Shown: positions 4,174-50,738, numbered from the stretch's first letter. The stretch is 64,000 nt of DNA from an uncultured Desulfobacteraceae bacterium (GCA_964431545.1 CAYSLC010000003.1:449-64448); one strand, 5' to 3'. The notes: generated from the sequence alone by a model not told the origin. Program-made: numbers and translations.

Positions 4174-4272
4174 AAAGCCGTCGGGGAGGTTCGAGGCGGG
4201 AGAGCCGAACGGTATCGGGATCTCGGGGAGGTTGAGGCGGCAGGTGTGCTCCATTTTTTTCCTGTTCCGCTT

Positions 4273-9284: not shown

Positions 9285-9351
9285 ATGTTTCTCCGATCGC
9301 TGTTTTTGTTCCCAAACATTTTTTCCGCGTTGGCGGAAACCCCGACGAAGG

Positions 9352-9525
9352 GATGATCCGGCGGATCGAATCGATCGATCCCGGCGGTCTTCCCCCGGAT
9401 TGGGACGTCGCCGTCCGGTTGACCACCAAATAGCCGCCGACGGGCGTCCTCCGGCCTCCGCTACGGGGAGGTCGCCGTCACCCCTTGAAACGCAACCGGA
9501 ACAGCACCGCGTAGAGCACCGGCAC
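9352..9525. repeat. Right copy of the ~170-bp imperfect direct repeat
   Basis: Carries a copy of the cyclase 3' end (MIRRIESIDPGGLPPDWDVAVRLTTK*) followed by the true RND permease 3' end. Confidence 0.85.
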
Positions 9526-12577: not shown

Positions 12578-13756
12578 TCATTTCTCCGTCAGCTTGACCC
12601 GGCGGCCCTCATCCAGGCGGCTGATGCCGGCGGTGACCAGGAGATCCCCGTCGGAGAGCCCCGATTCGATGGCAAGCCCCTCGGGGGTGATCTCCCCCAC
12701 GGTCACCGGCCGCCGATGGACCACCCCGGTCCCGTCCTCCGACGGCGTCACGGTGTAGACGAACCGGCCGTCCCGGTCCTCCCCCACGGCCACGGTGGGC
12801 ACCATGATCCGTTTCTCGGCATCCCCCTGTTCGACGGCGAACCGGACCTCGGCGGCCATGCCCGGCCGGATCTCCGGGCGGGGCTCGGCCAGGGCCACCG
12901 TCACGGGAAAGGTGGTCTCCGCCCCGGTGGCCGACACCCCCACCTCGGTGGTCACCGCGTCGAAGCGCCGGTCCGGGAGGGCGTCGAAGACCACCGTGGC
13001 CGGCTCCCCTTCCCGGAGCCGGGAGATGATCCCCTCTGGCACGGCCACCCGGACCTCGATCCGGTCCCCGCAGGTGACCGTGGCCACGGGTTGACCGGGC
13101 CCCACGTTCTCGTTCTCCTCCACGGCCACCGCCGCCACGGCGCAGTCGTCCCGGGGGACGGCGAGCCGGGTGTAGCCGAGCTGCCTCCGGGCCAGGGCCA
13201 ACTGCTTTCGGATGGACCGGACCGCCGCCTTGGAGGACTCCGCCGCGGCCCGGGCCGCGTCCAGGTCGTTGCGCGAGGCGTTCCGGTTCTCGTAGAGGGC
13301 CCGGACCCGCTCGTAGGCGGCGGCGGCGTTCCGGGCCTCGGCCTCGGCCCGGGCCAGGGACGCCTCGGCCTCCTGGACCCGGAGGGCGAAGTCGGCCGGG
13401 TCGAGCCGGGCGATGAGATCCCCCCGGTCCGCCCGGTCCCCCACCGCCACCAGGACCTCCTCGATGGTCCCGCCCACCTTGAAGCTCAGAACGGACGCCA
13501 CGGCGGCCCGGGCCGTGCCGGCAAAGGCCCGAACCGTCGGCCCGGCCGAACCGGAGACCCTCACATACCGGACCGGGCGCAGGGCCGGCTCCGTCTTGGC
13601 CGGGGGCTCATCTCCGCAGCCGAGGGCGAGGAGGAGGCACAAGATGGCTTTCCATGTCCAGGTGATCGTGTCGTTTTGGAATAATTTCAAAGTGGTCTTC
13701 CGTTGAGATCCTCGATCAATTTCTCCATATTTTTGTTGACAAAGGGCGGCTTCCAA
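12578..13756 (-). CDS. RND periplasmic adaptor (membrane fusion protein); true start probably near 13690
   Basis: Lipoprotein-like LLLALGC, LSFKVGGTI..V.V..GD.V..GD.IARLD, coiled-coil, RPGM. Directly upstream of the permease. Confidence 0.9.
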   Translation of the reverse strand: MEAALCQQKYGEIDRGSQRKTTLKLFQNDTITWTWKAILCLLLALGCGDEPPAKTEPALRPVRYVRVSGSAGPTVRAFAGTARAAVASVLSFKVGGTIEEVLVAVGDRADRGDLIARLDPADFALRVQEAEASLARAEAEARNAAAAYERVRALYENRNASRNDLDAARAAAESSKAAVRSIRKQLALARRQLGYTRLAVPRDDCAVAAVAVEENENVGPGQPVATVTCGDRIEVRVAVPEGIISRLREGEPATVVFDALPDRRFDAVTTEVGVSATGAETTFPVTVALAEPRPEIRPGMAAEVRFAVEQGDAEKRIMVPTVAVGEDRDGRFVYTVTPSEDGTGVVHRRPVTVGEITPEGLAIESGLSDGDLLVTAGISRLDEGRRVKLTEK

Positions 13757-13821: not shown

Positions 13822-15093
13822 ATGATCAAACAGTTCTCGTTTCACAACTGGAAAAGCTTCCAACAGGCCGATCTTCACATCGATCCCCTGACGGTGTTGA
13901 TCGGCGCCAACGCCAGCGGAAAATCCAACGCCATCGACGCCCTGGCATTCCTGCACAGATTGGCTTCGGGCATCAACCTGACCCCCGCTCTCGCCGGAGA
14001 CGCCAACCTTCCCGCCATCCGGGGGGGACTGGAATGGGCGGCGCTGAAACCACGGACATCGGAATTTACCCTGGAGTCCGTCATCTCCGGAACCGCCGAA
14101 CGGACGGATTACCATTATTCGATCACCATTTCCGTCGGAAACGGCCAGTGCCTACTGAAAGCGGAATCGATCAAACGGTTGAAATACCGCCCCACCAAGC
14201 GAAATCAACAGGCCGGAAAACCCTATGAAATCTTCCTATATCGAACCGACCCCTGCGATGGGGAAAGCCCTTCGATCACCGCAAGACTATACAATGAAAA
14301 GATGGGATCTCCAAGGCCGGCCTCCCGAACGAATGCGATCCTGACGCAGCTTGCCGCCCAAAACCTCCGAAGGGAGATCGCGGAAGGCATTGACGAGGTC
14401 AAAAGGGGACTCGGAAACATCTTTATCCTCGATCCCATTCCAGCACACATGCGGGACTACAAACCGTTTTCGGACCGGATGGAGACCGACGCGGCCAACA
14501 TCGCCGGAGTCATCGCCGCCCTGCCCCAAGATCAGAAAGCCAAAATGGAACAAACATTGACGGATTATGTCCGTCACCTTCCGGAGAGAGATATCCGAAA
14601 GGTCTGGGCCGAGCCGGTGGGGAAATTCCAATCGGATGCCATGCTCTATTGCCTGGAGTCATGGAAGGCCGATGATGAATCGACGCTGGTCGACGCGCGA
14701 GGCATGTCGGACGGGACGCTTCGCTTTCTCGCCATCTTGACCGCGCTTCAAACCCGCCCCTCCGGCAGTCTGCTGGTGGTGGAAGAGATCGACAATGGGC
14801 TGCACCCTTCCCGCGCGTTGCTGATCGTTCGGATGCTTCGGGAAATCGGGAAATCCCGGGCCGTCGACGTTCTGGCCACCACTCATAATCCTACCCTGCT
14901 CGACGCGTTGGGGGCCGGGATCGTCCCCTTCGTCACCATCTCCCATCGGGATATCTCCTCCGGCTTCAGCAAACTGACGCTCTTGGAGGATTTGAAACAA
15001 TTGCCGAAACTTCTGGCATACGGACCGGTCGGCAAGCTTGTTTCACGGGGCATGATCGAGGACGCGCTCAAGGCCGAGCCGGACCATGCATAG
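13822..15093 (+). CDS. ABC-type ATPase (AAA_21/AbiEii-like)
   Basis: Walker A GANASGKS, signature MSDGT, Walker B/D-loop VVEEIDNGLHP, H-loop TTHNP. No transmembrane partner. Confidence 0.9.
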   Translation: MIKQFSFHNWKSFQQADLHIDPLTVLIGANASGKSNAIDALAFLHRLASGINLTPALAGDANLPAIRGGLEWAALKPRTSEFTLESVISGTAERTDYHYSITISVGNGQCLLKAESIKRLKYRPTKRNQQAGKPYEIFLYRTDPCDGESPSITARLYNEKMGSPRPASRTNAILTQLAAQNLRREIAEGIDEVKRGLGNIFILDPIPAHMRDYKPFSDRMETDAANIAGVIAALPQDQKAKMEQTLTDYVRHLPERDIRKVWAEPVGKFQSDAMLYCLESWKADDESTLVDARGMSDGTLRFLAILTALQTRPSGSLLVVEEIDNGLHPSRALLIVRMLREIGKSRAVDVLATTHNPTLLDALGAGIVPFVTISHRDISSGFSKLTLLEDLKQLPKLLAYGPVGKLVSRGMIEDALKAEPDHA

Positions 15094-15672: not shown

Positions 15673-17118
15673 CTACCACTCCCCCGAAGCCTCGATCCAC
15701 TCGGCGAGGGTCGGCGGATCGGGGAGGCAGGCCGAGACCGGCTTCCACTGGCACTGGGCATTGAGTTCCACGCCCTCCTGGATCAGGGAGACGGGCCGGT
15801 CCGCCGAGACGACCACCACAACGATGCCCCGGTGCTCGGCGGTGAAGCGGAGGGCGGAGTTGAACCGCGCCCCCCGGGCCCGGTCCTCCCCCCGGATCGA
15901 CCGGCCGTCCAGGAGGCAGGCGAAGCCGTGGAGCTTCAAGTCCGCGCCGATGTGGAGGGCGCCGTCCATCTTGGAGAGAGAGCGGGTGAGGGCCATGTAC
16001 CGGGGCTCCCGGAGATCGAGGGGCGCCTCCAGGGATTGGCCGGAAATCCCGATGGGCGGGTCGTTCAGGTCGATGACCAGGGTGCAGCCGTGCTTCATCT
16101 CCTCGGCGCTGTGGACGAGTTTGAGGACAATCTGGAAGAGGCCGTGCTGCCGGTCGGAAGGGATCCCCGACTCCAGGAGGAGTTCCTCCAACTCCACCAG
16201 CTTCGCCTTGCGGGTGGAGGAGTGGAACCGCCCGTCAAAGAAGGAGCAGACGCGGTTTCCGTTGGCGCTCAGAAATCCGTGGGCGCCCCGGAAATGGGCG
16301 GTGATCCGCCCCCTGGGCATCTTCCCGGCGGCGATGCCCACGATGCACCGGCCGTCGGAGACGAGACTGCACCCGGGCCGTTCCACCGCCGTCAACAGCT
16401 TCCGGACGTGCTTGAAGTTGTCGAGGTTGGGCCGCTCCTCCGGGGGAAACCGGGTGAGGAAGGTCAGCTCCGTCAGGGCGGCCGGCGGGACGAAGACCAG
16501 GGCGCCCAGGGGCCACTCCCCCTCCTCCAGGGTTTTGGAGATCCTGAGCACGGCGTCGAGGATGGGGTAGTTGCGCATGTGGACGTCCATGCCGAGGATC
16601 CGGTTCATCTCGTCGACGATGTGGTCCCGGACGGCGTGGGTGGCGTATTCCTGGAGGACATACCCGGAGGTGCCCAGATAGCAGGAGTTTTCAGAGGTCA
16701 TGTCGTGAGCCAGGAGCCACGCCGCGTGCTCCAGCCACCGTTCGGTGGGACCGGTGGCGCACATATCCGGATGGTGCTCGGTGAACCAGATCTGGTAGAA
16801 GACCGCATCGGACCACCCCCCGAAGGAGATCAACCCCGCCAGACCCAGGTTCTTCTCGGGATAGGGGTGACCGTACCGGCTCATGTCCGATGGGGGCGGC
16901 GCCTGGGTCCGCCACCGGTCGGATTCGATGTAGAGTTCCTTGAGCTTGGGTTCGTGCCCCCGCAGCAGGTTCTGGGGGTCATGGATCCGCATGGGTCCTT
17001 CCGGGTTCACCGCATAGATCACCGCGGCCCGGCTGGGGCCGGAAAAGTGAGACAGTCCGTCCCGGAGCCCTTCATAGATGTGGAAGGCGCACAGCTTGCG
17101 GATCAATGGGTCGACCAC
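15673..17118 (-). CDS. DisA_N/DAC-domain protein with long N-terminal sensor-like region (deltaproteobacterial type)
   Basis: C-terminal HGCTLVID...KMDGALHIG..L.GFACLLDG...RGARFNSA. GTG start. Confidence 0.85.
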   Translation of the reverse strand: MVDPLIRKLCAFHIYEGLRDGLSHFSGPSRAAVIYAVNPEGPMRIHDPQNLLRGHEPKLKELYIESDRWRTQAPPPSDMSRYGHPYPEKNLGLAGLISFGGWSDAVFYQIWFTEHHPDMCATGPTERWLEHAAWLLAHDMTSENSCYLGTSGYVLQEYATHAVRDHIVDEMNRILGMDVHMRNYPILDAVLRISKTLEEGEWPLGALVFVPPAALTELTFLTRFPPEERPNLDNFKHVRKLLTAVERPGCSLVSDGRCIVGIAAGKMPRGRITAHFRGAHGFLSANGNRVCSFFDGRFHSSTRKAKLVELEELLLESGIPSDRQHGLFQIVLKLVHSAEEMKHGCTLVIDLNDPPIGISGQSLEAPLDLREPRYMALTRSLSKMDGALHIGADLKLHGFACLLDGRSIRGEDRARGARFNSALRFTAEHRGIVVVVVSADRPVSLIQEGVELNAQCQWKPVSACLPDPPTLAEWIEASGEW

Positions 17119-36233: not shown

Positions 36234-37076
36234 ATGAAGATCAGGAAGGCAAAGTTCGCGGGCAGTTGGTATCCCCGATCCGCCGCCGCCTGTGAAAAGG
36301 AGATCGAGACGTTCCTTGCCGACGCCAAGGGGAACTGCCCCGGAACGGGCGGCACCATCGGGGGGATCGTCCCCCACGCCGGATGGGTCTTTTCGGGGGG
36401 CATCGCCTGCAACGTGATCCACTGCATCGCCCGGGAGCCGGGGGTCGATACGGTGGCGGTCTTCGGGATGCACCTGCCGCCGGGGGCCCCCAACCACATC
36501 ATGCCGGAGGGGGCCTGGGAGACGCCCCTGGGGCCCATGCACATCGACGAGGAGATGTGCCGGATCCTCATGGACCGCTTCCCCTTCAACGTGGAGAGCT
36601 TTCCCCACGACAACACCATCGAACTCCAGCTCCCCTTCCTCAAATACTTCTTCCCCAAGGCGGCCCTGGTGCCGCTGGGGGTGCCGCCCTCCAAGAAATC
36701 CCTGGAGATCGGCCGGGCCGTGGCCGGAATCGCCGGGGAGACGGGACGTCGGATCAAGGTGCTCGGCTCCACCGATCTGACCCACTACGGGGCCAACTAC
36801 GGGTTCGAGCCCCAGGGGCGGGGGCGGGAGGCGATCGACTGGGTCCGGTATGAAAACGACCGGCGGGCCGTGGAGACGATGCTGGAGATGGACCCCGAGG
36901 CGCTGATCCGGGAGTCCCTGGACAACCAGAACGCCTGCTGCGGCGGCGCCGCGGCCACGGCCATCGCGGCGGGAAAGGCCCTGGGTTCCAAGGGGGCGGA
37001 ATCCGTGGCCTACGCCACCAGCTATGAGAAGAGCCCCGGGGACAGCTTCGTGGGATATGCCGGCATCGTCTTTTAG
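36234..37076 (+). CDS. amrB: AmmeMemoRadiSam system protein B (MEMO1 family)
   Basis: R...[47 protein letters not shown]. Confidence 0.9.
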
Positions 37077-38709
37077 AGGGGTCCGGGGGACCCGGGCCGG
37101 GCGCCCCTTCCGGATCGAGGGAGTCCTCTTCGACTTCGACGGCACCCTCACCCGTCCCGGGGCCCTCGACTTCGTGGCGATCAAGAAACAGATGGGCTGC
37201 CCGGCCGGGGAGCCGCTGCTGGAGTTCATCGAGAAGATCGCCGACGCGGGGGAACAACGCCGGGCCCGGGAGACGCTCGACCGGTTCGAGATGGCCGCCG
37301 CGGCCCTGGCCCGGCCCAACCCCGGCGCCGAGGCGCTCGTGGGGCGGCTCCGGGCCAGGGGGCTCAAAATCGGGATCCTCACCAGAAACACCCGGGCGGC
37401 CGTGGACGCATCCCTGGCGAACTTCCGGGAGATCGACGCCGGCCTTTTCGACGCGATCCTCTCCCGGGACGACGCCGCGTCCCCCAAGCCGAGCGGGGAA
37501 GGGGTCCTCCTGGCCGCGGAGCGGATGGGGGTGGATCCCGCCCACCTGCTCGTGGTGGGGGATTTCATCTTCGATGTCCAGGCCGGCCGGGCCGCCGGGG
37601 CCCTCACGGCGTTTCTGGAGAACGGCAGGGGTCCGGCCGGCGCCGGGGAGGAGGGCGACTTCACCGTCTCCGACCTCTCCGCGCTCCGGCCCCTGATCCG
37701 GCTGGGCGCGCCGCTTCCGCCGGGAAAGTTTCCCAACGCCCTCCTACGGGAGTTTCTGGACGGTTTCGAGTTCCAGGACCCCTCCCTGATCATCAACCCC
37801 GGCATCGGAGAGGACATCGCCGCCGTGGACGTGGGGGACGAGGAGGTGCTCATCCTCAAATCGGACCCCATCACCTTCGTCACCGACGCCGTCGGCCACT
37901 ACGCGGTCCTCATCAACGCCAACGACATCGCCACCTCCGGGGCCGTGCCCCGGTGGCTCCTGGCCACCCTCCTCTTCCCCCCGGGCATGAGCGCCTCGGA
38001 GATCTTCGCGGTGATGTACGACGTAAAGGACGTCTGCCGGGAGTGGGGGATCACCCTGTGCGGCGGCCACACCGAGATCACCGACGCGGTGACCCGACCG
38101 GTGGTCTCCGGCACCCTGGCCGGCACCGTGGGCCGGAAGGACCTCATCGACAAGGCGGCCATGCGGCCCGGGGACCGGGTTCTGCTCACCAAGGGGGTGG
38201 CGGTGGAGGGGACCACCATCATCGCCCGGGAGCTGGGCGACCGGCTCTCCGAACTCGGCGTGACCGAAGGGGAGATCGAGACCTGCAAGGGGTTCCTGGC
38301 CGACATCGGAGTCCTGACCGAGGCCCGGATCGCGGCGGCGTGCGAAGGGACCAGCGCCATGCACGACGTCACCGAGGGGGGCCTGGCCACGGCCCTGGGG
38401 GAGCTGGCCATCGCCGGCGGACACCGGATCCGGATCCGCATGGAGGCGATCCCGATCTTCCCGGAGACCGAGAAGATCGGCCGGCTGATGGGGTTCGACC
38501 CCCTTGGACTCATCGGCTCCGGAAGCCTGCTCATCTGCTGCCGCCCGGACCACTGCGACGGACTTCTCCACCGGATCCGGGACGCCGGCATCCCCGTCAC
38601 CATCATCGGAGAGGTGGCCGAAGCCGGGGAAGGGATCGAGGCGACCCGGGATGGTGCGCCGGCCGAATGGCCGAGGTTCGAGGTGGACGAACTGACACGG
38701 CTGTTCTGA
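37057..38709 (+). CDS. Fusion of HAD-IA hydrolase and AIR-synthase-related (PurM/HypE/ThiL-fold) domain; start uncertain
   Basis: [21 protein letters not shown] in the N-terminal half. [35 protein letters not shown] in the C-terminal half. Confidence 0.88.
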
Positions 38710-38736: not shown

Positions 38737-41013
38737 GTGGACCCATCCCGTCCAGGACAGATGCGGAGGCCGCCATTGATCGATGACAAACTCGGAAAGC
38801 TTCTAAACGGCGACGGTCCGACCCGGCCGCCGTACCCCTCCGAAGGGGCGGACCGGCTGGCGGATCACTGGATCCGGGATCTGCTGGCGGGCACCGATAT
38901 CCTGGCCTTTGCCCCGCCGGGATCGGGGAAGACGGGCCTGGCCCTCTCGGTTTTGGGACGGCTCGATCCCGGCATGCCGGCCCTCTACGTCGGCCCCCGC
39001 CTCACGCCGTTTTCCGCAGTCCGCATGGCTTCGGCCCTGGAGGCCCTCGGCCGGACCGTCGCGTCCGCCTTTTGGGAGAGCCCCGTTTCCGCCGGCCGGA
39101 TCCTGGGACGGCCGGACGATCTCCGGGGCCGGCCCCTGCCCCGGCTCGGCCTCCTGATCCTGGACGATCTCCAGGAGATCCGCTCGCCGGACCTCGGTCC
39201 CGACCTGGAGCGGCTCCTCCTCCGCCTGCCGGCGGACCTCCCCATCCTCTACCTCTGCGACGCCCTCTCCGACCCCGAGGAGGCGGCGGCATGGCTCCGG
39301 GCGGCCCGAAACCGGCCCTGCCGGACGGAGACGCCCGATCTTCCGGAGATGCCCAGGATTCCGGCCCTCTTTTCCCCGGACGGGGAGATGGCGCCGCTGG
39401 TGGACCGCAAACGGGTGGCGGGGAAGGCCAAAAAGCTCCTCAAGGGCCGGGAGCCGGTCCCGGACCCGGCGTCGGGCCGGTTCCTCCGGATTCTGGCGAC
39501 GGCGCTGCGGGGGGCGGATCTGGTCCCCGCCCTGGTCCTGATGACCACCCCCGAACGGTGCGACCGGGCCGCCCAGGCCTGCCCCAAGGGGGAGTCCCCG
39601 TCCACCGCCGGAGATCTCCTCACCCATCCCCGGATCACGGCCATCCTGGACGGCTCCCCGATTCTCAAGGACTATCGGGCCCTCCGCGCCGCCCTTTCCC
39701 GGGGGGCGGCCCCCCTCCACGACGGCCACCATCCCCTCTGGAACCGGCTGGTGGAGGAGTTGCTCTCCCTGGGGGCCGTGGACCTTGTCTTCGCCCCGCC
39801 GGGGCCGGCGGGCCGGATGATCCGGCGGTTCCGGTCCGTGCTCTTCGCCGCCACCGGCACGGAGCCCGACCCCCTGGCCCGGAACCGCCTCGACGAATGG
39901 GAGACGGACCGGCTCCTCCGGCTGGCCGGCCGGCCGGGAACCGACCCGGCCGGCTGCATCGCCGCCGTCCACGCCGCCGACGTCGATCCGGTCTTCCTCA
40001 AGGACCAGTTGATCCGGCCGCCCCGCCGCCTCTCCGCCACCCTCCGGTGCGACCTCCGGACCACCCTGACCCTACTGGCCATGGGCGGCGATCCGGCCGA
40101 GACCTTGAAACGGACCTTCATCGGCCACCGCCGTCCCGATTTCGGCCGATTCTGCGCCGAGGCCATGGCCGCCGATCTGGCCGAGGAGGTGACCCGGCCG
40201 GCATGCAGCGGCCATCTCCAGACCGTGGCCGCCCTCAAGGACCTGCGCCTGAAGCTGGAAATGCGCCTGGGCCGGCTGGAAAACGAAGCCAAATCGGCCT
40301 CCGGCCGCCACCGAGCCGGCGTTCTGAACGAAAAAACGGCCCGGGAGAGCCTCCTGCGCCGCCTGCCCTGCGAGGCGTGTCCCCACCACGATCTCTGCCA
40401 CGGCCGGGGGACCCGGCGGTTCCGGGAGGCCATCGCCTCCTTCTACGGGATGGCCCCCCGGCTCCGGCAGAGCCTGACCGGCCTCCTGTACGATTTTGAC
40501 CACCACCTTTCCTGTCTTTCGGACTTCGGCATGATCGCCCCGCCGACGGGGCTCTCCAGGGAGGGCTGGATCGCCTTTCGGACCGGCCTGGGGGCGCCCC
40601 AGCCGCTGACGGAGTGCCTCCGGGAAGGAGCGTTGACGCTCGGGACGCCGGGTGGAGACCCTGGGGAGGACATCTCCCAGGCCCTGGTGGGGGGATTCAC
40701 GGAGGGGGCGGCCGCGCCGTTTCCTCCCGGTACGGCCGAGGCCCTGGCGGACGGGTTCCGGGAGCTTCGACCCCACTGGGACGGGCTGGAACCGGTCCTC
40801 GGGAAGACCCAGGAGGCGCTGCTGCGGTTCGGCGTCCTGGCTCCGGACTACGACCATGCCGCCTCGGCGACGATCCTGGCCTGGCGCCGGGGCGTCGATC
40901 CGGAGACCCTGGCCATCAGAACCGGCCTGACCCACGGGGCCCTCTCCCGGCTCTGCGAAGGAGCCGTCGACCTGTGGCGCCGGGTGATGTCCGTCGGCGG
41001 CGCCGATTCATGA
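38737..41013 (+). CDS. Degenerate Ski2/HelY-like helicase
   Basis: Walker A APPGSGKT. LILDDLQ in place of DEvH. CDALSD in place of SAT. RLAGRPG in place of QMxGRAGR. PCEACPHH insertion and DSHCT-like tail. Confidence 0.7.
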   Translation: MDPSRPGQMRRPPLIDDKLGKLLNGDGPTRPPYPSEGADRLADHWIRDLLAGTDILAFAPPGSGKTGLALSVLGRLDPGMPALYVGPRLTPFSAVRMASALEALGRTVASAFWESPVSAGRILGRPDDLRGRPLPRLGLLILDDLQEIRSPDLGPDLERLLLRLPADLPILYLCDALSDPEEAAAWLRAARNRPCRTETPDLPEMPRIPALFSPDGEMAPLVDRKRVAGKAKKLLKGREPVPDPASGRFLRILATALRGADLVPALVLMTTPERCDRAAQACPKGESPSTAGDLLTHPRITAILDGSPILKDYRALRAALSRGAAPLHDGHHPLWNRLVEELLSLGAVDLVFAPPGPAGRMIRRFRSVLFAATGTEPDPLARNRLDEWETDRLLRLAGRPGTDPAGCIAAVHAADVDPVFLKDQLIRPPRRLSATLRCDLRTTLTLLAMGGDPAETLKRTFIGHRRPDFGRFCAEAMAADLAEEVTRPACSGHLQTVAALKDLRLKLEMRLGRLENEAKSASGRHRAGVLNEKTARESLLRRLPCEACPHHDLCHGRGTRRFREAIASFYGMAPRLRQSLTGLLYDFDHHLSCLSDFGMIAPPTGLSREGWIAFRTGLGAPQPLTECLREGALTLGTPGGDPGEDISQALVGGFTEGAAAPFPPGTAEALADGFRELRPHWDGLEPVLGKTQEALLRFGVLAPDYDHAASATILAWRRGVDPETLAIRTGLTHGALSRLCEGAVDLWRRVMSVGGADS

Positions 41014-41054: not shown

Positions 41055-41414
41055 TTACCCCATGCCCGGAAAAGTGATTACCTGCCTGCACCCGTCCACA
41101 ACGTCCACGATCTTTCCCTGGCCGAGCGTACCGATCTTCTCAAGGAGTCTGGTTTTGCTCACGGTGGCCATCTGGCTGACGACGACCACGCTGGCCTTCG
41201 GTAGATTGGCGGTCCCCTTCCCGAGCCGGACATTTCCCGGCACCCGGGCAAGTTTCAAGTTCGACGTCAAGAGGCTGACCACCGTGGTCTGGATTCGGCT
41301 CCGATTGAGGATGTCGTTCTGGATGACCACCGCCGGTCTCATGCCGGAGGGGCCGGAATCGTCCGACCGTCCGAATTCGACCCAGTAAACGTCACCCTGG
41401 AGCGGCGTTACCAC
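41055..41414 (-). CDS. mazF: MazF/PemK family toxin
   Basis: QGDVYWV.F......RPAVVIQND..N......VV..LTS....GNV.L......LPK.SVV.VSQ. Confidence 0.92.
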   Translation of the reverse strand: MVTPLQGDVYWVEFGRSDDSGPSGMRPAVVIQNDILNRSRIQTTVVSLLTSNLKLARVPGNVRLGKGTANLPKASVVVVSQMATVSKTRLLEKIGTLGQGKIVDVVDGCRQVITFPGMG

Positions 41415-41662
41415 GGCAGTTCATCCACCGTCGTGTTCTCGGCGACGACTTCGGCCATGAGAAGCTGCTCCCGGGCGATCTCCTTGTCTTCAAACGCCCG
41501 GTTGACTTGCGCAATATATTCCCGTTCCTTGTCCCGCCTCAACTTTTCGACGAGCGCCTCGGTGACCAGGTGGCTCAGCTTGATCTTTTCCCTGGACGCC
41601 ACTTCATGGATCCGGGCATGAATGTCTTCCGGAATCGTCACGCTCAGTTTGGAATGGCTCAT
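41408..41662 (-). CDS. Ribbon-helix-helix antitoxin of the MazF-like toxin
   Basis: KLSVTIPED RHH start, acidic C-tail ending PW, overlaps the toxin start. Confidence 0.82.
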   Translation of the reverse strand: MSHSKLSVTIPEDIHARIHEVASREKIKLSHLVTEALVEKLRRDKEREYIAQVNRAFEDKEIAREQLLMAEVVAENTTVDELPW

Positions 41663-41907
41663 ATTTGTTCTCCTGATGTCGTCGGTTTGCTGTCCCATAA
41701 ATAATCATACAATTTATCGCTCTGTCAACAGGATTTTCACCCCCGATTTCCATGGGATACGGATAGACATGGGGATGCCCGCGGCCGGTTGACCAATCGA
41801 AACCGCTTCCGAATTGGACAGGCGGCGAATCGGTCGATCCGTGCGATCCGCCCGTCAAGATCACAGGACCCGTCCGGCGCCAGAAAAGAATCGGCCTCGA
41901 ACGAGGC

Positions 41908-44900
41908 TCATTCCTCGCGCACCGCCTCGTCCGCGCGCCGGGCCAGGCGGAACCCGAAATCATCGCTGCGGACCTCGGGGGAGCCCTGGCGGCGGAAGGT
42001 CGTCCGGCAGTACTCGGCCCCGAAGATCCACGAGCCGCCCCGCAGGACCCGGTCCGGGCCCCTGGGTTGCCGGACCCAGGGGCCGCCGTCTTCGGGGGCG
42101 CCCTCGTAGTTTCCGTGCCAGTCGTCCTCCACCCACTCCCAGACGTTGCCGTGCATGTCGTAGAGCCCCCAGTCGTTGGGGGCCTTCCCGCCCACGGGGC
42201 GGAGCTGGTCCCCGGAGTTCTTCCGGTACCAGGCGGCCCGGTCGAGGTCCTCTTCCGCATCGCCGGTGTTGTACCGCGTCGACGTCCCGGCCCGGCAGGC
42301 GTACTCCCACTGGGCCTCGGAGGGCAGTGCCAGGCCGGCCCATTCGGCGAACCGCCGGGCGTCGTGCCAGCTCACGCCCACCACCGGCTGTTTCGGCTGG
42401 TTGAAGCTCCGGTCGCTCCAGGACCGGGGCTCCTCCATGGCCGGATGGGCCGCCAGGAACCGGCCGTACTCCTCGTTGGTGACCGGGTACCGCCCCAGGT
42501 AGAAGGGCGCCACCCGCACCGGGTGGGCGGGTCCCTCCCAGTCGAAGCGCCCCGCCTCGGAGGGCGGTGATCCCATGGTGAAGGTCCCTCCCGGGATCAG
42601 GACCATCTCGTACCCCACCGATTCCGAACGGAACATCTCCTGGGATTGCTGGTCCCGGCGCGCCTCCACCCACCGCCGGATGGTCTCGGAGGTGTGCTTG
42701 AGCAGCTTCGGCATCAGCCGGTCCACCGCCGCCCTGTCGATCCGCTCCAGGATGTGGAGGGCCACGTTCTGTCGCTCCCACATCTCCAGATCCTCCCCGG
42801 GATGGATCTCCAGAAGCTTGATGAACGGTTCGGAGGAGATCTCCGTCGCCTCGTCCAGGCACAATTCCACCAGATCCCGGTGGTCGGCGAAGGCGGGGCG
42901 CTTCACCAGCTCCCGCATGAAGGGGACCATGAGGGAGGGCTCCTCCTGGAGGGCCAGCAGCAGCAGGATCACCTCCTGCCACCACGGCTCGCCGAAGCGG
43001 GCCGCCAGGTCCCGGATCACCCGCCGGTCCTCGAAGTAGGTCCGGCGGATCTCCCGGGCCGCGAGATACTCCTGGAACCCGAGGTGCATGAAGCCGTAGC
43101 TGTCCTGATCCCAGCCGGTGAGCAGGCCGCTTTCGTCCCGGACCGCAGACAGAAACGACTCCGCCGCCCCGTGCTCCCACCCCACGGCCCGGAGGGCCGG
43201 TTCCATGACGGGGGCCAGCTCCCCGGCCGTGGCCCTTGTTCGCCCCTCCCGCTCGTGGAGCCAGAGGGCCACCGGCTGGAGCACCCGCCGGCCGGTCCGG
43301 GCGGTCACCTTCGACGGGAACCCGATGGCACCGCGCCAGAGTTCCAGCAGCACCTCGATGCACTCCTCGTAGAGGCGGGCCCGGCTCCGGGGCAGATAGC
43401 CCCGGTCCCGGTGGACCAGGCAGAGGTTGGCCAGCAGCAGCGGGTTCCGGGTCATGGCGAAGACCCGGCGGGCCCGGAACTGGGTTCCCCGGAGCCGCGC
43501 CAGGAGGTCGTCCGCCTTCTCCCGGGCGATCACCGCCGCCTGGTCGGTGTCGGAGGATAGGCCCGTCTCCACGCTCCGGTACCAGTTGTGGATGAAAATC
43601 TCTGCCTGATCCGCGGACAAAGGCCGCATGTGCATCTCCAGAAACGCCTCGCCGAGGCGGGCCTCGGCGGTATACCCGGCGAACCTGGAGGTGACCACGA
43701 ACCGGCACGACCCGTGGACCCGCATCGCCTCGTCGATCCATCGGGAGACCTGGACCCGCTGACCGGGCTCCGCCACCTCGTCCAGGCCGTCGAAGAGGAG
43801 AAGGAGATCTCCCCGGTCCAGGAGACGCTTCCCGAACCCGTCGGGGGTGCCCAGGTGGGGGTGGTCGAGCTGGGCCTGGATGAAGGCGTCGAGGCCCCGG
43901 CCGAGGTCCCGCAGCTCCCGCAGGGGGAGAAAGACGGGGAGCGTGTCCACCGGAAGGCCCAGGTCGGCCCACCCGCCTTCCAGACACCAGAGCATCAGGC
44001 GCCGCAGGTGGGTCGTCTTTCCCGATCCGGGGTCCCCGAGGATCACCACTCCCCGCCGTCCCAGGCGGTCGGCCTCCCGGAAGGCGTCGGGCACGGAGAT
44101 CTCGATGCCCGCGCCGCACTCCCCAAGCCGCTTCTCCGCGTCCTCGGAGTCGGCGAAGCAGGCATCCCCCGTGGCCCGGAGATCGACCATGGCCCGCAGG
44201 GGCACGTAGACATCGGCGATGCGGATCGGCGCCCGCAGCCGCGTCTTGAAGCCGACCACCGGGAGATACTCGTGGAGGGAGCGGACCTTTCCCACATAGG
44301 CGTCGATGGCGGCCTTCGGAACGGGGTCGGCCGGGGCGGGCCGGACCGCCGCGACGCCGTCCGTCCCCGCCGATTCCGGCTCCCCCGATTCCGACCCCGA
44401 CGGCTCCGGTTCGGCTCCAGGGGACACGGGCTCCGGGGACCAGTCCCCCAGATCGATGACGTACCTCGGCAGCGGGTCCTTCCCCTTGCCCCGGGTCCAG
44501 ATGGCGTCCGGCCCCCAGGCCCCGTGGAGTTCCCGCCGGCAGCGGGTCTCCACCGTCAGCCGGCCCCGGGTGAACCGGAGGAGGTTGTACTGGAGGGGGT
44601 GGCCCGGGGTCCACTCCTTGACCGGCGCGCCGAAGGTCCCGGCGCCGATGGTGTGGATCGACCGGCCGTCCGCCGTGACGTCGTAGGCGTACTGCCCCTT
44701 CTCCGCCTTGTGGATGTGGCCGTGGAGGGCCAGGCGGAACCCGGCCCCGGCCAGCCGTTCCATGAACCCGTGGTCGGTGATCCGGTCCTCGAAGGGACTG
44801 ATGAGCGGATGGTGGAAGACCGCCAGCTTCAGGCACCCCTCGAATCTGGCCCTTTCCCCGCGGATGGCGCCCAGGGCCGTGCCCACCGCTTCAGGATGGA

Positions 44901-46095
44901 TGGCGGCCCGGGATCGGAAGTGGTGGTCGAGGTTCCAGGCGGAATTGAAGCCGAGGATCAGCAGGTTGCAGGCGGGCAGGTGGTGGAGGACGGCCTGCTC
45001 CGGATAGTCGAGGGGGTACGCGATCCCCTTCACCGTCTCGTGGAACCGGCTGAACTCGGCGAACCGGTTTCGGTAGGCCGCCTCGTTCCGGACCCGGAGG
45101 ACATCCTCCCCCACCCGGATGATCCGCGCCTCGTCCGGCTCTTCATCGACGTCGGCCAGGTCGACCAGGTCGTACCCCTTCCGGGCCAGCCGCCAGTTGA
45201 GGTCGTGGTTGCCGGGGACCATGACCAGCCGGGACGGATCGAGATCGAACTCGGCGAAGACCGCCTCCAGAAAGCGCCGGGCCGCGGCGTACTCGTCCGG
45301 TTCCGACCGGGTGGCGATGTCGCCGGAGAGGATCAGCCCGTCGAGGCGATCGACATCGAGGCCGCCGGCGAGGTCCTCGGCCAGTTGGTTGAACCAGTTG
45401 ACGGCGTCCCCGTCGGTGCCGAAGTGGAGATCGGACAGATGGAGGAGCGTGACGGTCCCTTCCGGCCCCGGCTTGTCCACGCCCCGGCCGCCGGCCGAGG
45501 CCCTTTCCGATATCCGGCCCGGCTCTCCGATATCTTCGGGTCCGTGCGGTCCCTGGAAGCTTTGACCCGGCGTCCCGGTGGTCCCGGCCTGGACCACCCC
45601 CCGGGCGGCATCGGCGCGGATCGAGGAGGTAGTGGGCCGGGGGACGGGCGTCGAGCCTTCAGGCGGCCCCCCCTCCCCCTCGATCCGCCGGGCCGTCCGC
45701 AAGGCCCAGAGGATCTTGGCCAGCCCGTCCTCGTAAGCGGGGAAGAGATCCACCCAGTGGAGGGCCGAAAGGCGCGGGTCGAGGGAGGTGCACTCGTCGA
45801 CGCGGACGGGGATCAGGAAGATCTCGTCCGGGGGAAACTCGTCGAGCACGTCCAGGGCCGTCTTCAACTCCTTCTGGACGTACCCCCGCTTGGAGAGGGA
45901 TCGGGAGGAGAGGAGCGCCAGGACGCTTCCGCTCTCCCGGATAGTCCGGGTGATGGTGGCCCGCCAGTTCTGGCCGGGCATCAGGTCCGCGTCGTCCATC
46001 CAGGGGACGAGGCCGGCGTCCGCGAGATCCTGGTAGAGCCGCCGGGCCGTCTCCAGATCCTCCCTGCCGTAGCTGATAAACACCCGATGGTTCAT
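41908..46095 (-). CDS. NLR-like protein: TIR - calcineurin-like metallophosphoesterase - NACHT - FGE-sulfatase (SUMF1) domain, 1395 aa
   Basis: TIR: VFISYGRED...VQKEL. MPE: SDLHFG/SGD/PGNHD/HHP/HGHIH. NACHT: GDPGSGKT, LLFDGLDEV, VTSR. FGE: GLYDMHGNVWEW, RGGSW...GFRL. Confidence 0.92.
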   Translation of the reverse strand: MNHRVFISYGREDLETARRLYQDLADAGLVPWMDDADLMPGQNWRATITRTIRESGSVLALLSSRSLSKRGYVQKELKTALDVLDEFPPDEIFLIPVRVDECTSLDPRLSALHWVDLFPAYEDGLAKILWALRTARRIEGEGGPPEGSTPVPRPTTSSIRADAARGVVQAGTTGTPGQSFQGPHGPEDIGEPGRISERASAGGRGVDKPGPEGTVTLLHLSDLHFGTDGDAVNWFNQLAEDLAGGLDVDRLDGLILSGDIATRSEPDEYAAARRFLEAVFAEFDLDPSRLVMVPGNHDLNWRLARKGYDLVDLADVDEEPDEARIIRVGEDVLRVRNEAAYRNRFAEFSRFHETVKGIAYPLDYPEQAVLHHLPACNLLILGFNSAWNLDHHFRSRAAIHPEAVGTALGAIRGERARFEGCLKLAVFHHPLISPFEDRITDHGFMERLAGAGFRLALHGHIHKAEKGQYAYDVTADGRSIHTIGAGTFGAPVKEWTPGHPLQYNLLRFTRGRLTVETRCRRELHGAWGPDAIWTRGKGKDPLPRYVIDLGDWSPEPVSPGAEPEPSGSESGEPESAGTDGVAAVRPAPADPVPKAAIDAYVGKVRSLHEYLPVVGFKTRLRAPIRIADVYVPLRAMVDLRATGDACFADSEDAEKRLGECGAGIEISVPDAFREADRLGRRGVVILGDPGSGKTTHLRRLMLWCLEGGWADLGLPVDTLPVFLPLRELRDLGRGLDAFIQAQLDHPHLGTPDGFGKRLLDRGDLLLLFDGLDEVAEPGQRVQVSRWIDEAMRVHGSCRFVVTSRFAGYTAEARLGEAFLEMHMRPLSADQAEIFIHNWYRSVETGLSSDTDQAAVIAREKADDLLARLRGTQFRARRVFAMTRNPLLLANLCLVHRDRGYLPRSRARLYEECIEVLLELWRGAIGFPSKVTARTGRRVLQPVALWLHEREGRTRATAGELAPVMEPALRAVGWEHGAAESFLSAVRDESGLLTGWDQDSYGFMHLGFQEYLAAREIRRTYFEDRRVIRDLAARFGEPWWQEVILLLLALQEEPSLMVPFMRELVKRPAFADHRDLVELCLDEATEISSEPFIKLLEIHPGEDLEMWERQNVALHILERIDRAAVDRLMPKLLKHTSETIRRWVEARRDQQSQEMFRSESVGYEMVLIPGGTFTMGSPPSEAGRFDWEGPAHPVRVAPFYLGRYPVTNEEYGRFLAAHPAMEEPRSWSDRSFNQPKQPVVGVSWHDARRFAEWAGLALPSEAQWEYACRAGTSTRYNTGDAEEDLDRAAWYRKNSGDQLRPVGGKAPNDWGLYDMHGNVWEWVEDDWHGNYEGAPEDGGPWVRQPRGPDRVLRGGSWIFGAEYCRTTFRRQGSPEVRSDDFGFRLARRADEAVREE

Positions 46096-46334
46096 GCGAA
46101 TGATCCCGTGGTCGGTCGGCGTGTCCGTGGGGTTTCTCTCGTCGTCCCGACATACCATCCACTCGGAGAAATGGCAATAGCCGGCCGGCCCCTCTTTTTC
46201 CCTTGCATCGGGTTCCCTCCGGGGCTATGGTTCATGGATAGTCGGCCTTGGAGCATCGGATCCACACCAGCCAATGGGTTCGGTCGGACCGCCGGACCGA
46301 ACCGGGGAAACGGCCGGACAGGGGAGCGCGGGCC

Positions 46335-47523: not shown

Positions 47524-49638
47524 TTATTTGCTGCTGAAGACGGTCACCGGATCCCACTCCTGATCCCCGGTGATCCCGCAGCACGCTTCCAGCCGTTCCA
47601 GGTAGAGCCGGGACGGCCCGTCGGCCGGGTTCCCCTCCAGCACACGCCGGAAGGCCCGGGCCGCCCCCTCCCACTCCCTTTTGCGGTAGAGCGCCAATCC
47701 GGCCTCGAAGTCGTCCACCATTGAGAGGGTCTCCGGGGCCGCATCCTCCCTGCGCCCCAGCAGCTCGAAAAGGTCGACCGCCTCCGCCCTTCCCTTGACC
47801 CGGACCCGGTCCAGCTCCCGGAGCAGAAACCGCCGGTCCAGCCGGGCGGCGGTGGACCCGGAGACGATGATCTCCGTGCCGTAAACCTTGTTCAAGCCCT
47901 CCAGGCGGGAGGCGAGGTTGACGGCGTCCCCGATCACCGTATAGTCCATGAAATCGTTGCTGCCCAGGTTCCCCACCGTGACCACCCCCGTGTTGATGCC
48001 GATGCCGAGCCGCAGGGAATCGATCCCCTCCACGGCCGCCTCCCCGCGAAGCTCGCGGAGCCGGCGGAGCATATGGACGGCCGCCTCGGCGGCCTGGGCG
48101 GGATGGTCCTCGACATCCACCGGCGCACCGAAGAACGCCATGATGGCGTCGCCGATCAACTTGTCCAGGGTGCCCCGATGCTGGAACACGATGGGGACCA
48201 TGTTGGAGAAATAGTGGTTGAGGAGCAGGCCCGTCCCCTTGGCGCCCAGGCGCTCGGAGATGGTGGTGAATTTCCGCAGATCGGAAAACAGGATGGTCAG
48301 CTCCTTGTGGCGCCCTTCCAGGTCGAGGTCGAGGTTGCCGCTGATCAGCTCCTCCACAACGCCGTAGGAGACGTACCGGCCGAACAGGGAGGTGACGAAG
48401 GAAGCCCGCCGCTGCTCGAAGATCTTCTGGGTGATCACCCCGCCGAGGTACTGGAGGCCCAGCACGGCCATGAGGGGCGCCGTGGGAATCCAGAGCCGTT
48501 TGTTCAGAAAAGCCAGATGGCCCATCCAGACCACCAGGCCGAGGCTCAGGAGAAGAAACACCGCGGCGCCGATCATGCCGAACCGGGGCAGGTAGAAGAG
48601 GACCCCGAGGATCCCCAGGAGCACGATCAGGGTCCGGACGAACGGCAACGAGAGCTTCCGGATAAACGCTCCGGAGAGCATGGTCTCCACCGCGTGGGCG
48701 TGGCAGGCGACCCCCAGTTCCTTGGCGCCGAGAACATCCCGCACGACGCTGCCGAAGATCTCCTTGTATTCGTCCGTGGGTTTCAGGAACCGGGTGTAGG
48801 GGGTGCTGAAGATATCCTTCTCGGTGGCGAGACTGCTGCCGAGGATCACCAGCTTCCCCCGGACCGCCTCCGGTGGGAAGTCGTCTTTCACAACGTCCAG
48901 AAAAGAGAGGATCGGAAAGATGCGGTGGTCTCCGCGGTAATCGATGATCAGCTCGGGATAGGGGATCAGCAGTTGTGAGGGGCCTTCCCGGCCCACGGCC
49001 AGGTGGTCCTCTCCGGAGAAATCGAAGGTGAAGTCGATATTGAGATAGGTTCTGGCAAGCTCCAGGGAAAAAGCGGGAAGGAGTTCCAGGTTTCCGTCGG
49101 ACAGCGGCTTGGCGTGGAGATACCGGACCCGTCTCAGGATCTCATCCTCGTCGAGGAAAAAATCGATGAATCCGTCTCCGATCATCGCCTCCTGGAAGGT
49201 GGGGATGGAGACCAGCTCCCCGCCGTAGGCGGAGGTGCCCCGGGCCAGGACCACGTTGTTGCACCGGTCCATGGCCGCGGCAAGCCCCCGGTCGGCGGTC
49301 GGATCGGGGTCCGGGGCCAGGAAGATCATGTCCATGCCGATGATTTCGGCGCCGGCCTCGCAGAGATGGTTCAGGGCCAGGGCCATGTGGCGCCGGGACC
49401 AGGAGGCCTTCTCCCGGCCCAGGGCCACGGCGCTCTCCTGGTCCATGAGCACCAGCACCACCTCCCCCGACGGCGCCGTCCGCCCCCGCCATTTGAAATG
49501 GAGGTCGAAGAGATACCCGTCGACCCACCGGAAGAGCCCCACCCGATGGCCCAGGAGAATCAACGCCACCACCGCCAGGGTGCACAGGGCGGAGGCGGCG
49601 ATCTGTACCCGATCGGTGCGGCCGTTTCGGGGGCTCAT
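47524..49638 (-). CDS. CHASE2-domain class III adenylate/guanylate cyclase
   Basis: N-terminal TM, CHASE2, 3 TM, then FSDLRKFT, DKLIGDAIMA, GINTG, DYTVIGDAVNLASRLEG. Confidence 0.93.
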   Translation of the reverse strand: MSPRNGRTDRVQIAASALCTLAVVALILLGHRVGLFRWVDGYLFDLHFKWRGRTAPSGEVVLVLMDQESAVALGREKASWSRRHMALALNHLCEAGAEIIGMDMIFLAPDPDPTADRGLAAAMDRCNNVVLARGTSAYGGELVSIPTFQEAMIGDGFIDFFLDEDEILRRVRYLHAKPLSDGNLELLPAFSLELARTYLNIDFTFDFSGEDHLAVGREGPSQLLIPYPELIIDYRGDHRIFPILSFLDVVKDDFPPEAVRGKLVILGSSLATEKDIFSTPYTRFLKPTDEYKEIFGSVVRDVLGAKELGVACHAHAVETMLSGAFIRKLSLPFVRTLIVLLGILGVLFYLPRFGMIGAAVFLLLSLGLVVWMGHLAFLNKRLWIPTAPLMAVLGLQYLGGVITQKIFEQRRASFVTSLFGRYVSYGVVEELISGNLDLDLEGRHKELTILFSDLRKFTTISERLGAKGTGLLLNHYFSNMVPIVFQHRGTLDKLIGDAIMAFFGAPVDVEDHPAQAAEAAVHMLRRLRELRGEAAVEGIDSLRLGIGINTGVVTVGNLGSNDFMDYTVIGDAVNLASRLEGLNKVYGTEIIVSGSTAARLDRRFLLRELDRVRVKGRAEAVDLFELLGRREDAAPETLSMVDDFEAGLALYRKREWEGAARAFRRVLEGNPADGPSRLYLERLEACCGITGDQEWDPVTVFSSK

Positions 49639-50657
49639 GGGGATCCCGTGGTCGCATCCGCAAAGAAAAAGGGCCCGCGCATCCCCTCGATCCCCCCCAG
49701 CGGGCTGTTGACCACGATGATCACCCGGCACTTTTTCAGGATCCTGGAGGAGACGTCCACCTTCTTCAGGTCCCTGGCATCCCCCTCGCTGACCACCAGG
49801 TTGGCCTTCATCAGCCCCTGGGCCGCCTTGACATCCTTCACCACATACTTCCGCCGTTTCCGGCGCCGGCTCCGATCCTGTTTCTCCTCCTTCCCCTCCT
49901 GGGCGATGGCGGGGGAGGGTCCGAGCCCGGACAGGACCCGATCGATCAGCCCCTCCAGATCGGACCGGTCCGCCCCCAGCCGGCCCGGTGGAAGGTCGGA
50001 GACGACGTACCGGGCCATCCCCCGCCGGGCCAGGGATTCCCGCCCCACCTCCTCGATACCGTAAACGGCCCGGCCGGCCTCATCCACCACCTGGGGGAAC
50101 AGGGCCGGGACGACCTCCTCGCCCCGGGCGTCGAGGACCAGCCAGGTCTCCGTCTCCGGTTCGGGCGCCGTCTCCGCCGACGGCTCGGGATAGGCTTCCC
50201 ACGCCACCCCGGCGGACCGGAAATGGTCGAGAAGCCTCGCGGTCAGCCCTTCGACCCCCTTGATGTCCGCCTTCCGGGTCACCTCGAAGTGAGGGCGGTC
50301 CGTCTCGCCCACGAACCGGTCCCCGGCCTCCTGGTACCGGATCAGGGCCCGCAGGTGGAGGGCGACCCGGCCGCCGCCCAGGCTCTTGACGGTCTCCCGG
50401 TCGTTGAGCCGGATGCCCGCCGCGAGCTTCAGAATCGACTGGAGGGCCGTGACCTGGGCCGCCCGGAAGGCGCGACCCTTATCGCCGCCGTTCCGGTCGA
50501 GGTACCCCTTGCCCACGCCGTAGATGACGCCGTCGTCCCAGTCGATCCGCCCGTCGGCGAAGGTCTCCACGAAAGGGGAGAACCGGTCCCCGGCATCGGC
50601 GGCCCGGCAGGGGAGCGTGAAACATACCAGCAGCAGGAGCAAGATTTGTTTTTGCAT
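49635..50657 (-). CDS. Secreted hypothetical protein (LPP20-like N-terminal region)
   Basis: Signal peptide MQKQILLLLLVCFTLPCRA. GRIDWDDG...RAAQV.A...I and LVLDARG...PALFP.V.DE.G motifs. Its stop overlaps the cyclase ATG. Confidence 0.75.
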   Translation of the reverse strand: MQKQILLLLLVCFTLPCRAADAGDRFSPFVETFADGRIDWDDGVIYGVGKGYLDRNGGDKGRAFRAAQVTALQSILKLAAGIRLNDRETVKSLGGGRVALHLRALIRYQEAGDRFVGETDRPHFEVTRKADIKGVEGLTARLLDHFRSAGVAWEAYPEPSAETAPEPETETWLVLDARGEEVVPALFPQVVDEAGRAVYGIEEVGRESLARRGMARYVVSDLPPGRLGADRSDLEGLIDRVLSGLGPSPAIAQEGKEEKQDRSRRRKRRKYVVKDVKAAQGLMKANLVVSEGDARDLKKVDVSSRILKKCRVIIVVNSPLGGIEGMRGPFFFADATTGSP

Positions 50658-50738
50658 GGCTTTATCCTCCTGAGGGTGGCGGGATCCATCATCCCTCACT
50701 TTTTATGGGAGATCCGTGTTTTTTGTCAAGGCGCCTTT

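Follow-up and report, generated by a model that had tools for sequence, protein, structure and literature searches.

A 64,000-nucleotide stretch of the genome of an uncultured Desulfobacteraceae bacterium (GCA_964431545.1, CAYSLC010000003.1:449-64448; hereafter the window) carries on its minus strand one gene whose product joins a TIR domain, a metallophosphoesterase (MP), a NACHT NTPase and an FGE-sulfatase domain of C-type lectin (CLec) fold (Table 1). The open reading frame (ORF) spans 41908..46158, and a start at 46095, which coincides with the position where the TIR of homologues begins, gives a 1395-aa product beginning MNHRVFISYG and identical to database protein P0001. The window has a GC content of ~70% and is rich in long spurious ORFs; the GC content at third codon positions (GC3) of 41908-46095 is 0.91, as in the real genes of the window. 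All four Pfam domains scored above their gathering cut-offs, the NACHT match reaching 59.9 bits against a cut-off of 26.7. The original prediction, which had proposed this 1395-aa order of domains from the DNA and called for a hidden Markov model search of them, is confirmed by the ORF, by the four domain matches and by intact catalytic motifs; the ~80-aa low-complexity linker that it placed between TIR and MP is also present.

Table 1. Features of the NLR-like gene, its downstream neighbor and the retroelement repeats of two relatives (loci L087 and L088, in their own coordinates)
Feature	Position	Strand	Residues	Remarks
Whole gene, TIR-linker-metallophosphoesterase-NACHT-helical region-FGE/CLec	41908..46095	-	1395 aa + stop	P0001
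TIR_2	45709..46083	-	5-129	Pfam E=1e-26; Glu76 codon 45868-45870
Linker, low-complexity, Pro/Gly-rich, ~80 aa	45451..45678	-	140-215	degenerate motif copy at aa 159-182
Calcineurin-like metallophosphoesterase (MP) module	44446..45453	-	~215-550	catalytic core + C-terminal beta-sandwich
Metallophos Pfam match		-	216-463	E=2.6e-7
NACHT NTPase	43579..44049	-	683-839	Pfam E=3.6e-16
Helical NACHT-associated region	42616..43578	-	840-1160	conserved jointly with NACHT across family
FGE-sulfatase / C-type-lectin-fold domain	41938..42609	-	1163-1386	Pfam E=1e-58
Segment equivalent to variable region of relatives	41938-42042	-	1352-1386	
Terminator-like hairpin with T-run	41894..41907	-		directly after NLR stop codon
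Type II toxin-antitoxin pair	41055..41728	-		promoter-like site 41701-41728; RHH antitoxin 41408-41662; MazF/PemK toxin 41055-41414
L087 retroelement repeats	11460-11706, 13276-13522, 16086-16332			template repeat + variable regions in NACHT-FGE genes
L088 retroelement repeats	12039-12157, 14069-14187			template repeat + variable region

The NACHT domain has a Walker A motif, GDPGSGKT (K693; 44014-44037), and a Walker B motif, LLFDGLDE (aa 766-773), and residues K693, D769, D772 and E773 are invariant in 119-120 of 120 aligned homologues; the predicted Walker motifs are intact. A NACHT with Walker residues within a tripartite layout of effector(s), NTPase and sensor is the signature of STAND/NACHT NLR-like proteins. 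The gene probably encodes a single-chain immune receptor of this kind, of the FGS 'antigen-receptor' type, and the sequence supports the expectation that two catalytically intact-looking enzymes precede its NACHT. The effector-NACHT-C-terminal FGS layout is that of the 'antigen-receptor type' of bacterial NACHT proteins, for which TIR domains and calcineurin-like phosphoesterases have both been catalogued as N-terminal effectors (Kibby et al.; Kaur et al. 2020). What sets the window protein apart from that type is the tandem of both enzymes ahead of the NACHT, and in the literature searched we found no paper describing a TIR+MP tandem ahead of a NACHT-FGS core.

The putative active site of the TIR domain lies in a QKEL motif containing E76, the catalytic-position glutamate of the original prediction. 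The closest solved TIR sequences are those of SPARTA TIR-APAZ proteins, in which E76 aligns with residue 77, and the SPARTA papers name E77A as the mutant. The glutamate is kept in 15 of 16 aligned TIR-MP proteins, and its conservation within a TIR fold is what would be expected of a catalytic TIR NADase. The resemblance to SPARTA and to TIR-bearing STAND proteins thus extends to the catalytic residue, whereas the window protein has neither Argonaute nor APAZ and would presumably be activated through its NACHT rather than by guide and target nucleic acid; it differs from SPARTA and other TIR effectors also in having a second enzyme between the TIR and the switch domain. Thoeris was excluded, as ThsB matched only at E=0.007 and the gene has no ThsA-like neighbor.

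All five predicted metal-ligand motifs of the MP were found (D222-x-H224, G-D259, G-N296-H297-D298, H428/H429 and G-H460-x-H462); the ligands are invariant in 26 aligned homologues and, in an alignment of 120 sequences, are found in ~50-54 members with an MP. These DxH, GD, GNH[DE], H and GHxH motifs, together with an alpha/beta-sandwich fold, are those of the calcineurin-like superfamily. An AlphaFold (AF2) model of aa 205-575 based on a multiple sequence alignment was confident (predicted local distance difference test score, pLDDT, 90), and Foldseek ranked its matches in the PDB in the order Bacillus subtilis YydB (TMq 0.65), then GpdQ, Rv0805 and Lmo2642, then SMPDL3A/B and purple acid phosphatases, and then Mre11. 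A sequence search against solved proteins returned GpdQ, Rv0805, Icc and Lmo2642. Because the structural order and the sequence matches agree, we predict that the MP belongs to the nucleotide or small-molecule phosphodiesterases and not to the nucleases, a class assignment in which the fold alone does not fix the substrate. An Mre11/SbcD-type nuclease was rejected as the best class, Mre11 appearing only from 17th place (TMq 0.36-0.43), below YydB, GpdQ, Rv0805, Lmo2642 and SMPDL3, and the match to SbcD being weak and confined to the N-terminal motifs. The top structural match is PDB 9a6c_B, YydB from an integrative model of the YydD-YydB complex, and it outscores every characterized phosphodiesterase.

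The nearest validated system is DS-8, a single-protein MPP-NACHT anti-phage system that protects Escherichia coli (DefensePredictor, Science 2026; PMC13092281) and whose defense depends on the NACHT ATPase as well as on the catalytic residues of the MPP (PMC13092281). In both proteins a metallophosphatase immediately precedes a NACHT on the same chain, the MP domains are homologous at the domain level, and both resemble SMPDL3A-class phosphodiesterases; the window protein differs in its added N-terminal TIR and C-terminal FGE/CLec sensor and in the clade of its NACHT. An NCBIfam scan gave domain-level matches to DS9_1 (E=5e-22) and DS-8 (NF053861; E=5.8e-12). The DS-8 equivalog model scored 44.2 bits against a cut-off of 790, with the match limited to aa 219-470, and DS-9A (NF053862) scored 78.4 bits against 420 with no adjacent gene for its partner HAD phosphatase. 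A HAD-AIRS fusion at 37024-38709 lies 3 kb from the NLR gene on the opposite strand and looks metabolic.

The structural neighbors of the MP also raise the question of whether it regulates the response rather than executing it, by degrading a cyclic nucleotide or a TIR-made signal and so setting an activation threshold or ending the response. Among its nearest solved folds are SMPDL3A, which cleaves cGAMP, and three cyclic-nucleotide phosphodiesterases (Rv0805, Lmo2642 and Icc), the literature classes the calcineurin-like domains of such systems as 'nucleotide-signal-degrading', and cyclic-nucleotide-sensing GAF domains accompany TIR-MP in one family. Loss of MPP catalysis in DS-8, however, abolishes defense instead of enhancing it, and the MP would have nothing to regulate in most members of the present family because it is their sole enzymatic domain. 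Its terminal position in the effector slot and its fusions to EAD domains also suit an effector, and we consider a regulatory MP improbable.

The distribution of the MP was surveyed by an exhaustive MP-only search of 1.84 billion representatives, which gave 528 clusters at E≤1e-30, the best 150 of which were examined. Among these 150 the module was N-terminal in 47, C-terminal in 86 and alone in 4 (terminal in 137), and internal in 13; its partners were HEAT or WD40 repeats, NACHT, NB-ARC or other STAND ATPases, and FGE. A separate, biased search added EAD1, 2, 8 and 10, HetE-N, caspase or CHAT, and Macro domains. The same module, at 56-59% identity, occurs on unrelated NACHTs at either end, and ~45 of ~53 MP-bearing members of the window protein's own family have no TIR. 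By its positions and partner domains the MP is a mobile effector cassette, usually found at the very N- or C-terminal end of a STAND or repeat protein.

Searching with aa 200-1150 of the window protein recovered 889 relatives, the named ones mostly Desulfobacterales (Desulfococcaceae, Desulfosarcina and Desulfonema). RibBA encoded in the window has 82-87% identity to proteins of this order, which points to a high-GC Desulfobacterota as the host. Their NACHT-helical-FGE core is 55-71% identical (aa 600-1140) while the N-terminal slot varies, holding Metallophos alone (the commonest form, ~1170 aa), TIR_2, TIR_2+Metallophos, HetE-N+Metallophos, DUF4062 (recently reported to be a TIR-like NADase), trypsin, EAD7 or no module. 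Deep nodes of the domain-wise neighbor-joining trees were weakly supported and only nodes with support of at least 87% were used. The TIR of the window protein groups as sister with the TIR of P0039 (88% support), a TIR-NACHT-FGE protein that lacks an MP and is 71% identical in both TIR and NACHT, and the two proteins fall in one NACHT subclade alongside TIR+MP and MP-only members (87-93%). Similarly, P0032 and P0082 have sister TIRs (100%), but the NACHT of P0082 is sister to the NACHT of an MP-only protein (100%). On these trees N-terminal modules have been exchanged repeatedly, and shuffling is rampant in the NACHT-FGS family.

The full TIR-MP-NACHT-FGE form is rare but recurrent, at about six loci. 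Intact copies are P0001 itself, P0003 (61% identity) and P0032 (53%), and P0047 and P0123 are fragments. P0002 (L084:10001-14002), the closest homologue at 67% identity, has its FGE split off into a 203-aa ORF and its TIR glutamate replaced by alanine, and looks to be decaying. P0137 was rejected as a stand-alone TIR-MP protein; together with its downstream ORF it is a four-domain copy split by a frameshift. Desulfosarcina ovata (L085, AP021879.1 4898971-4918690) has a tandem array of NACHT-FGE or FGE paralogues, at least four in number, which is interrupted by an IS200-type Y1 transposase.

Ligand sensing by the FGE domain, as originally proposed, is the reading that the comparison best supports. 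Its best solved matches are PvdO, FGE and TvpA, the last a target of a diversity-generating retroelement (DGR). The catalytic C336 of human FGE aligns with F1358 and C341 with C1363, so that only the C341 equivalent is kept and the copper-binding cysteine pair is incomplete. Because the Cys336 equivalent is absent and its column is variable across the family, the domain was rejected as a formylglycine-generating enzyme (SUMF1/FGE), and the presence of a DGR variable region in two relatives is consistent with a predicted sensor.

These two relatives are bona fide DGR targets with complete DGRs. At L087, P0019, a Metallophos-NACHT-FGE gene, precedes HRDC and RVT_1 genes and another NACHT-FGE gene. 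A template repeat (TR) matches the 3' ends of both NACHT-FGE genes, and within the ~130 nt that match the mismatches are at template adenines. At L088, a frameshifted TIR-MP-NACHT-FGE gene is followed by HRDC and reverse transcriptase (RT) genes, and 17 of 19 mismatches between TR and variable region (VR) are at template adenines. The window protein shares its NACHT + CLec/FGE core with the DGR-diversified STAND-CLec sensors of Dore et al. (PNAS 2024), one published target of which carries Metallophos, NACHT and CLec, and its two relatives have the HRDC and RT genes and the adenine-specific TR/VR mismatches. In contrast to those sensors, the window copy has no template repeat, RT or VR signature within the 64 kb, and the five population single-nucleotide polymorphisms (SNPs) found in metagenome contigs in its VR-equivalent segment are all synonymous. 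Current DGR diversification of the window copy was rejected on these two results, although a remote DGR may lie elsewhere in the genome. The conserved FGE core (42086-42447) shows an approximately tenfold rise in metagenome contig depth, and assemblies break there, which reflects many paralogous FGE-domain genes in the communities and not variation in the window gene.

Two short motifs recur in the N-terminal parts of the family. The first, approximately I.A....GV[IVT][QL][AV]E.I..[LV]..[ND]F[FY]G, is a linker motif common to TIR-MP, TIR-NACHT and MP-NACHT relatives; it lies between TIR and MP in P0032 and P0123, between TIR and NACHT in P0039 (at aa ~160-185 in both P0032 and P0039) and at aa 9-33 of P0020. 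The copy in the window protein, IRADAARGVVQAGTTGTPGQSFQG (aa 159-182, 45550-45621), is degenerate, with proline, glycine and threonine in place of hydrophobic residues. The second motif, ..SQ[VI]G[VI][IV]GD[GN]..[IV]EGG[IV]HFHH, stands on the N-terminal side of at least 11 family NLRs (carriers are P0006, P0008, P0009, P0018, P0021, P0025, P0027, P0036, P0044, P0048, P0060, P0077, P0086 and P0106) and is also found at the end of a 135-aa HetE-N (PF20701) protein whose gene (L087:7591-7998) lies 3 nt upstream of P0019. Such short conserved Gly/Gln/hydrophobic motifs at NLR N-termini recall the Bell/BASS and Bab/Agp amyloid pairs, and the pairing of an upstream HetE-N protein with an NLR matches the layout of Bell-BASS/NLR pairs and of 'all-in-one' fusions, a likeness of layout; the degenerate copy in the window protein is a point of difference from these pairs. 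By analogy, the layout offers a route by which a TIR-motif effector gene could have fused with a motif-MP-NACHT-FGE gene.

We read the MP as the ancestral, autonomous effector of this NLR lineage and the TIR as a second, NAD+-directed module added N-terminally by shuffling, and we think it likely on balance that both enzymes are genuine effectors activated by NACHT oligomerization. Under this model the lectin-fold domain would bind a foreign ligand, probably of a phage, and binding would release ATP-dependent oligomerization of the NACHT and cluster the N-terminal modules. Like those of SPARTA and other TIR effectors, the TIR domains could then come together as active NADases and deplete NAD+, while the MP, as a binuclear phosphodiesterase of the GpdQ/Rv0805/SMPDL3A structural class, would hydrolyze a nucleotide phosphodiester, and the infected cell would undergo growth arrest or death.

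The main rival to two parallel effectors, overlapping with them in part, is a sequential model in which the TIR turns NAD+ into ADP-ribose (ADPR) or a cyclic-ADPR isomer and the MP hydrolyzes the product, for example to AMP and ribose-5-phosphate, either making NAD+ loss irreversible and denying the product to phage salvage pathways and sponges, or creating or shaping a new signaling nucleotide. Among the best 150 MP representatives, 19 also bear a TIR (12.7%, a figure with no baseline), which makes TIR the commonest catalytic partner. The pairing takes the forms TIR-linker-MP, MP-TIR, TIR-(AAA/STAND ATPase)-MP, FHA-GAF-TIR-MP and SEFIR/TIR-MP, and so recurs in several unrelated contexts besides TIR-MP-NACHT-FGE. 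The FHA-GAF family, whose genes sit among Ser/Thr kinases and a ClpB-like ATPase, is collinear with the TIR-linker-MP of the window protein over 95% of the query at 39-43% identity. Every MP ligand is retained in 16 of 16 aligned TIR-MP proteins, and both active sites in 15. Six Macro-MP fusions from Sorangium and metagenomes (P0142, P0159, P0176, P0184, P0199 and P0211; MP 53-57% identical) tie the MP family to an ADP-ribose-binding domain and hint at ADP-ribose-related substrates, and the fold class of the MP, a nucleotide or phosphodiester hydrolase and not a nuclease, also favors the sequential model.

On the other side, most MP-NACHT-FGE relatives lack a TIR and the close TIR-NACHT-FGE relative P0039 lacks an MP, and because MP-only and TIR-only relatives exist, each enzyme appears to suffice alone. 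DS-8 likewise defends with no TIR at all. Substrate coupling is implausible in the MP fusions to caspase or CHAT peptidases, the co-occurrence of TIR and MP has no baseline against which to be judged, and the flexible linkers of 40-110 aa show no sign of a fixed interface between the two domains. Coupled action of the two enzymes is thus a tentative proposal, and the broader claim that TIR and MP form a dedicated two-step nucleotide cassette, reused under NACHT-FGS, FHA-GAF and AAA/STAND ATPase sensors, is one that we put forward with some doubt. The frequency of the pairing across unrelated architectures nevertheless suggests some functional cooperation on one pool of NAD+-derived nucleotides. 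If the two-step cassette were real, in the DGR-bearing relatives it would ride on a retroelement-hypermutated receptor, that is, an adaptive-like receptor with a two-enzyme output.

Several points weigh against an immune receptor with two effectors. According to the literature, no FGS-type bacterial NACHT has been experimentally characterized, the PADLOC and NCBIfam matches are at domain level and far below family cut-offs, and a single-sequence AlphaFold fold of aa 1-600 was poor (pLDDT 43). No defense gene was found among the flanking genes examined, the toxin-antitoxin pair of Table 1 being the only conflict-type neighbor. Because the host is an uncultured Desulfobacterota metagenome-assembled genome, assigning phage defense in preference to some other self/non-self role or a developmental death function is moreover an extrapolation. 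The gene could instead serve kin discrimination, programmed cell death or a similar process in an aggregate-forming or filamentous bacterium, in keeping with the concentration of the family in Desulfobacterales, cyanobacteria and myxobacteria with multicellular habits, with a connection of such systems to multicellularity drawn in the literature, and with the lack of a defense island around the gene. However, bacterial NACHTs and DS-8, the tested proteins of related architecture, are anti-phage, the DGR-diversified sensor of relatives argues for a fast-evolving foreign ligand, and one relative adjoins a restriction-modification gene and several toxin-antitoxin pairs. A non-phage role is accordingly, in our estimate, unlikely.

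The window protein is not a new kind of system, and the novelty originally claimed for it was overstated: bNACHT/NLR-like receptors, FGS sensors, TIR NADases, MPP-NACHT proteins (DS-8) and DGR-diversified STAND-CLec proteins are all known, FGS NACHTs with TIR or calcineurin-like effectors having been catalogued, Metallophos-NACHT-CLec DGR targets described and DS-8 validated. The suggested comparison with PADLOC, like that with NCBIfam, returned only domain-level matches, and the full-length NCBIfam cut-offs of DS-8 and DS-9A were missed. New are the placing of TIR and MP in tandem before a NACHT-FGS core and the recurrence of the TIR-MP pairing across unrelated sensors. FGS-type bacterial NLRs are widespread among bacteria that are multicellular or form aggregates and have been proposed to be antibody-like, retroelement-diversified receptors, and metallophosphatase effectors have been validated only recently (DS-8). 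An MP in series with a TIR NADase, in a pairing seen in 19 of 150 MP proteins, narrows the substrate search to NAD+-derived nucleotides and so makes the question posed by DS-8 testable. In this family near-identical NACHT-FGS cores also carry a TIR alone, an MP alone or both, a natural series in which redundant, synergistic and sequential effectors can be compared, and the window protein is thus an experimental handle on the substrate of defense metallophosphatases and on stacked effectors.

Copies of the gene with ≥99% identity occur in several metagenomes from hypersaline lakes and marine sediments. Population SNPs within it comprise 30 synonymous and 9 nonsynonymous changes, a ratio that indicates purifying selection. 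Metatranscriptome contigs cover most of its length, and because such runs can contain DNA its transcription is likely rather than proven.

The original prediction placed the gene beside a MazF-type toxin-antitoxin pair. The MazF toxin and its ribbon-helix-helix (RHH) antitoxin are real, with a GC content of 0.59 against ~0.70 in the flanks, but the link was overstated: because the pair has its own promoter-like site (TTGACA-16-GATTAT) and a terminator-like hairpin follows the NLR stop codon, it is a separate transcription unit and a downstream neighbor of the NLR gene, not a component of it. Toxin-antitoxin genes near relatives are Unstab_antitox/ParE-toxin and VapB (L082), HepT/MNT and PIN (L084) and TacA/acetyltransferase (L087), and because these belong to other families they mark variable islets, not a conserved partnership.

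The gene was also said to interrupt a housekeeping run, and its flanks do consist of ordinary genes, although the locus itself is no defense island. One flank holds riboflavin genes, Memo, the HAD-AIRS fusion and a 758-aa protein that matches no family. The other has genes for an FAD oxidoreductase and a CHASE2 cyclase, for a VIT-vWA protein resembling sortase targets, and for an exosortase and a two-component system. A vWA-type ternary conflict system was rejected, as the VIT-vWA protein matches a sortase-target family and has the exosortase adjacent, and so was a Pycsar system, the CHASE2-cyclase match being generic class-III homology. The ORFs at 38737-41013 (plus strand, the 758-aa protein, which directly adjoins the MazF gene) and 49635-50699 (minus strand, 354 aa) have gene-like GC3 and no Pfam, NCBIfam or PADLOC match. 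Elsewhere in the window, 3995-4198 and 9342-9550 contain two adjacent direct repeats (98 nt, 88%; 70 nt, 77%) ~5.35 kb apart, possibly the duplicated ends of genes on either side of an inserted segment.

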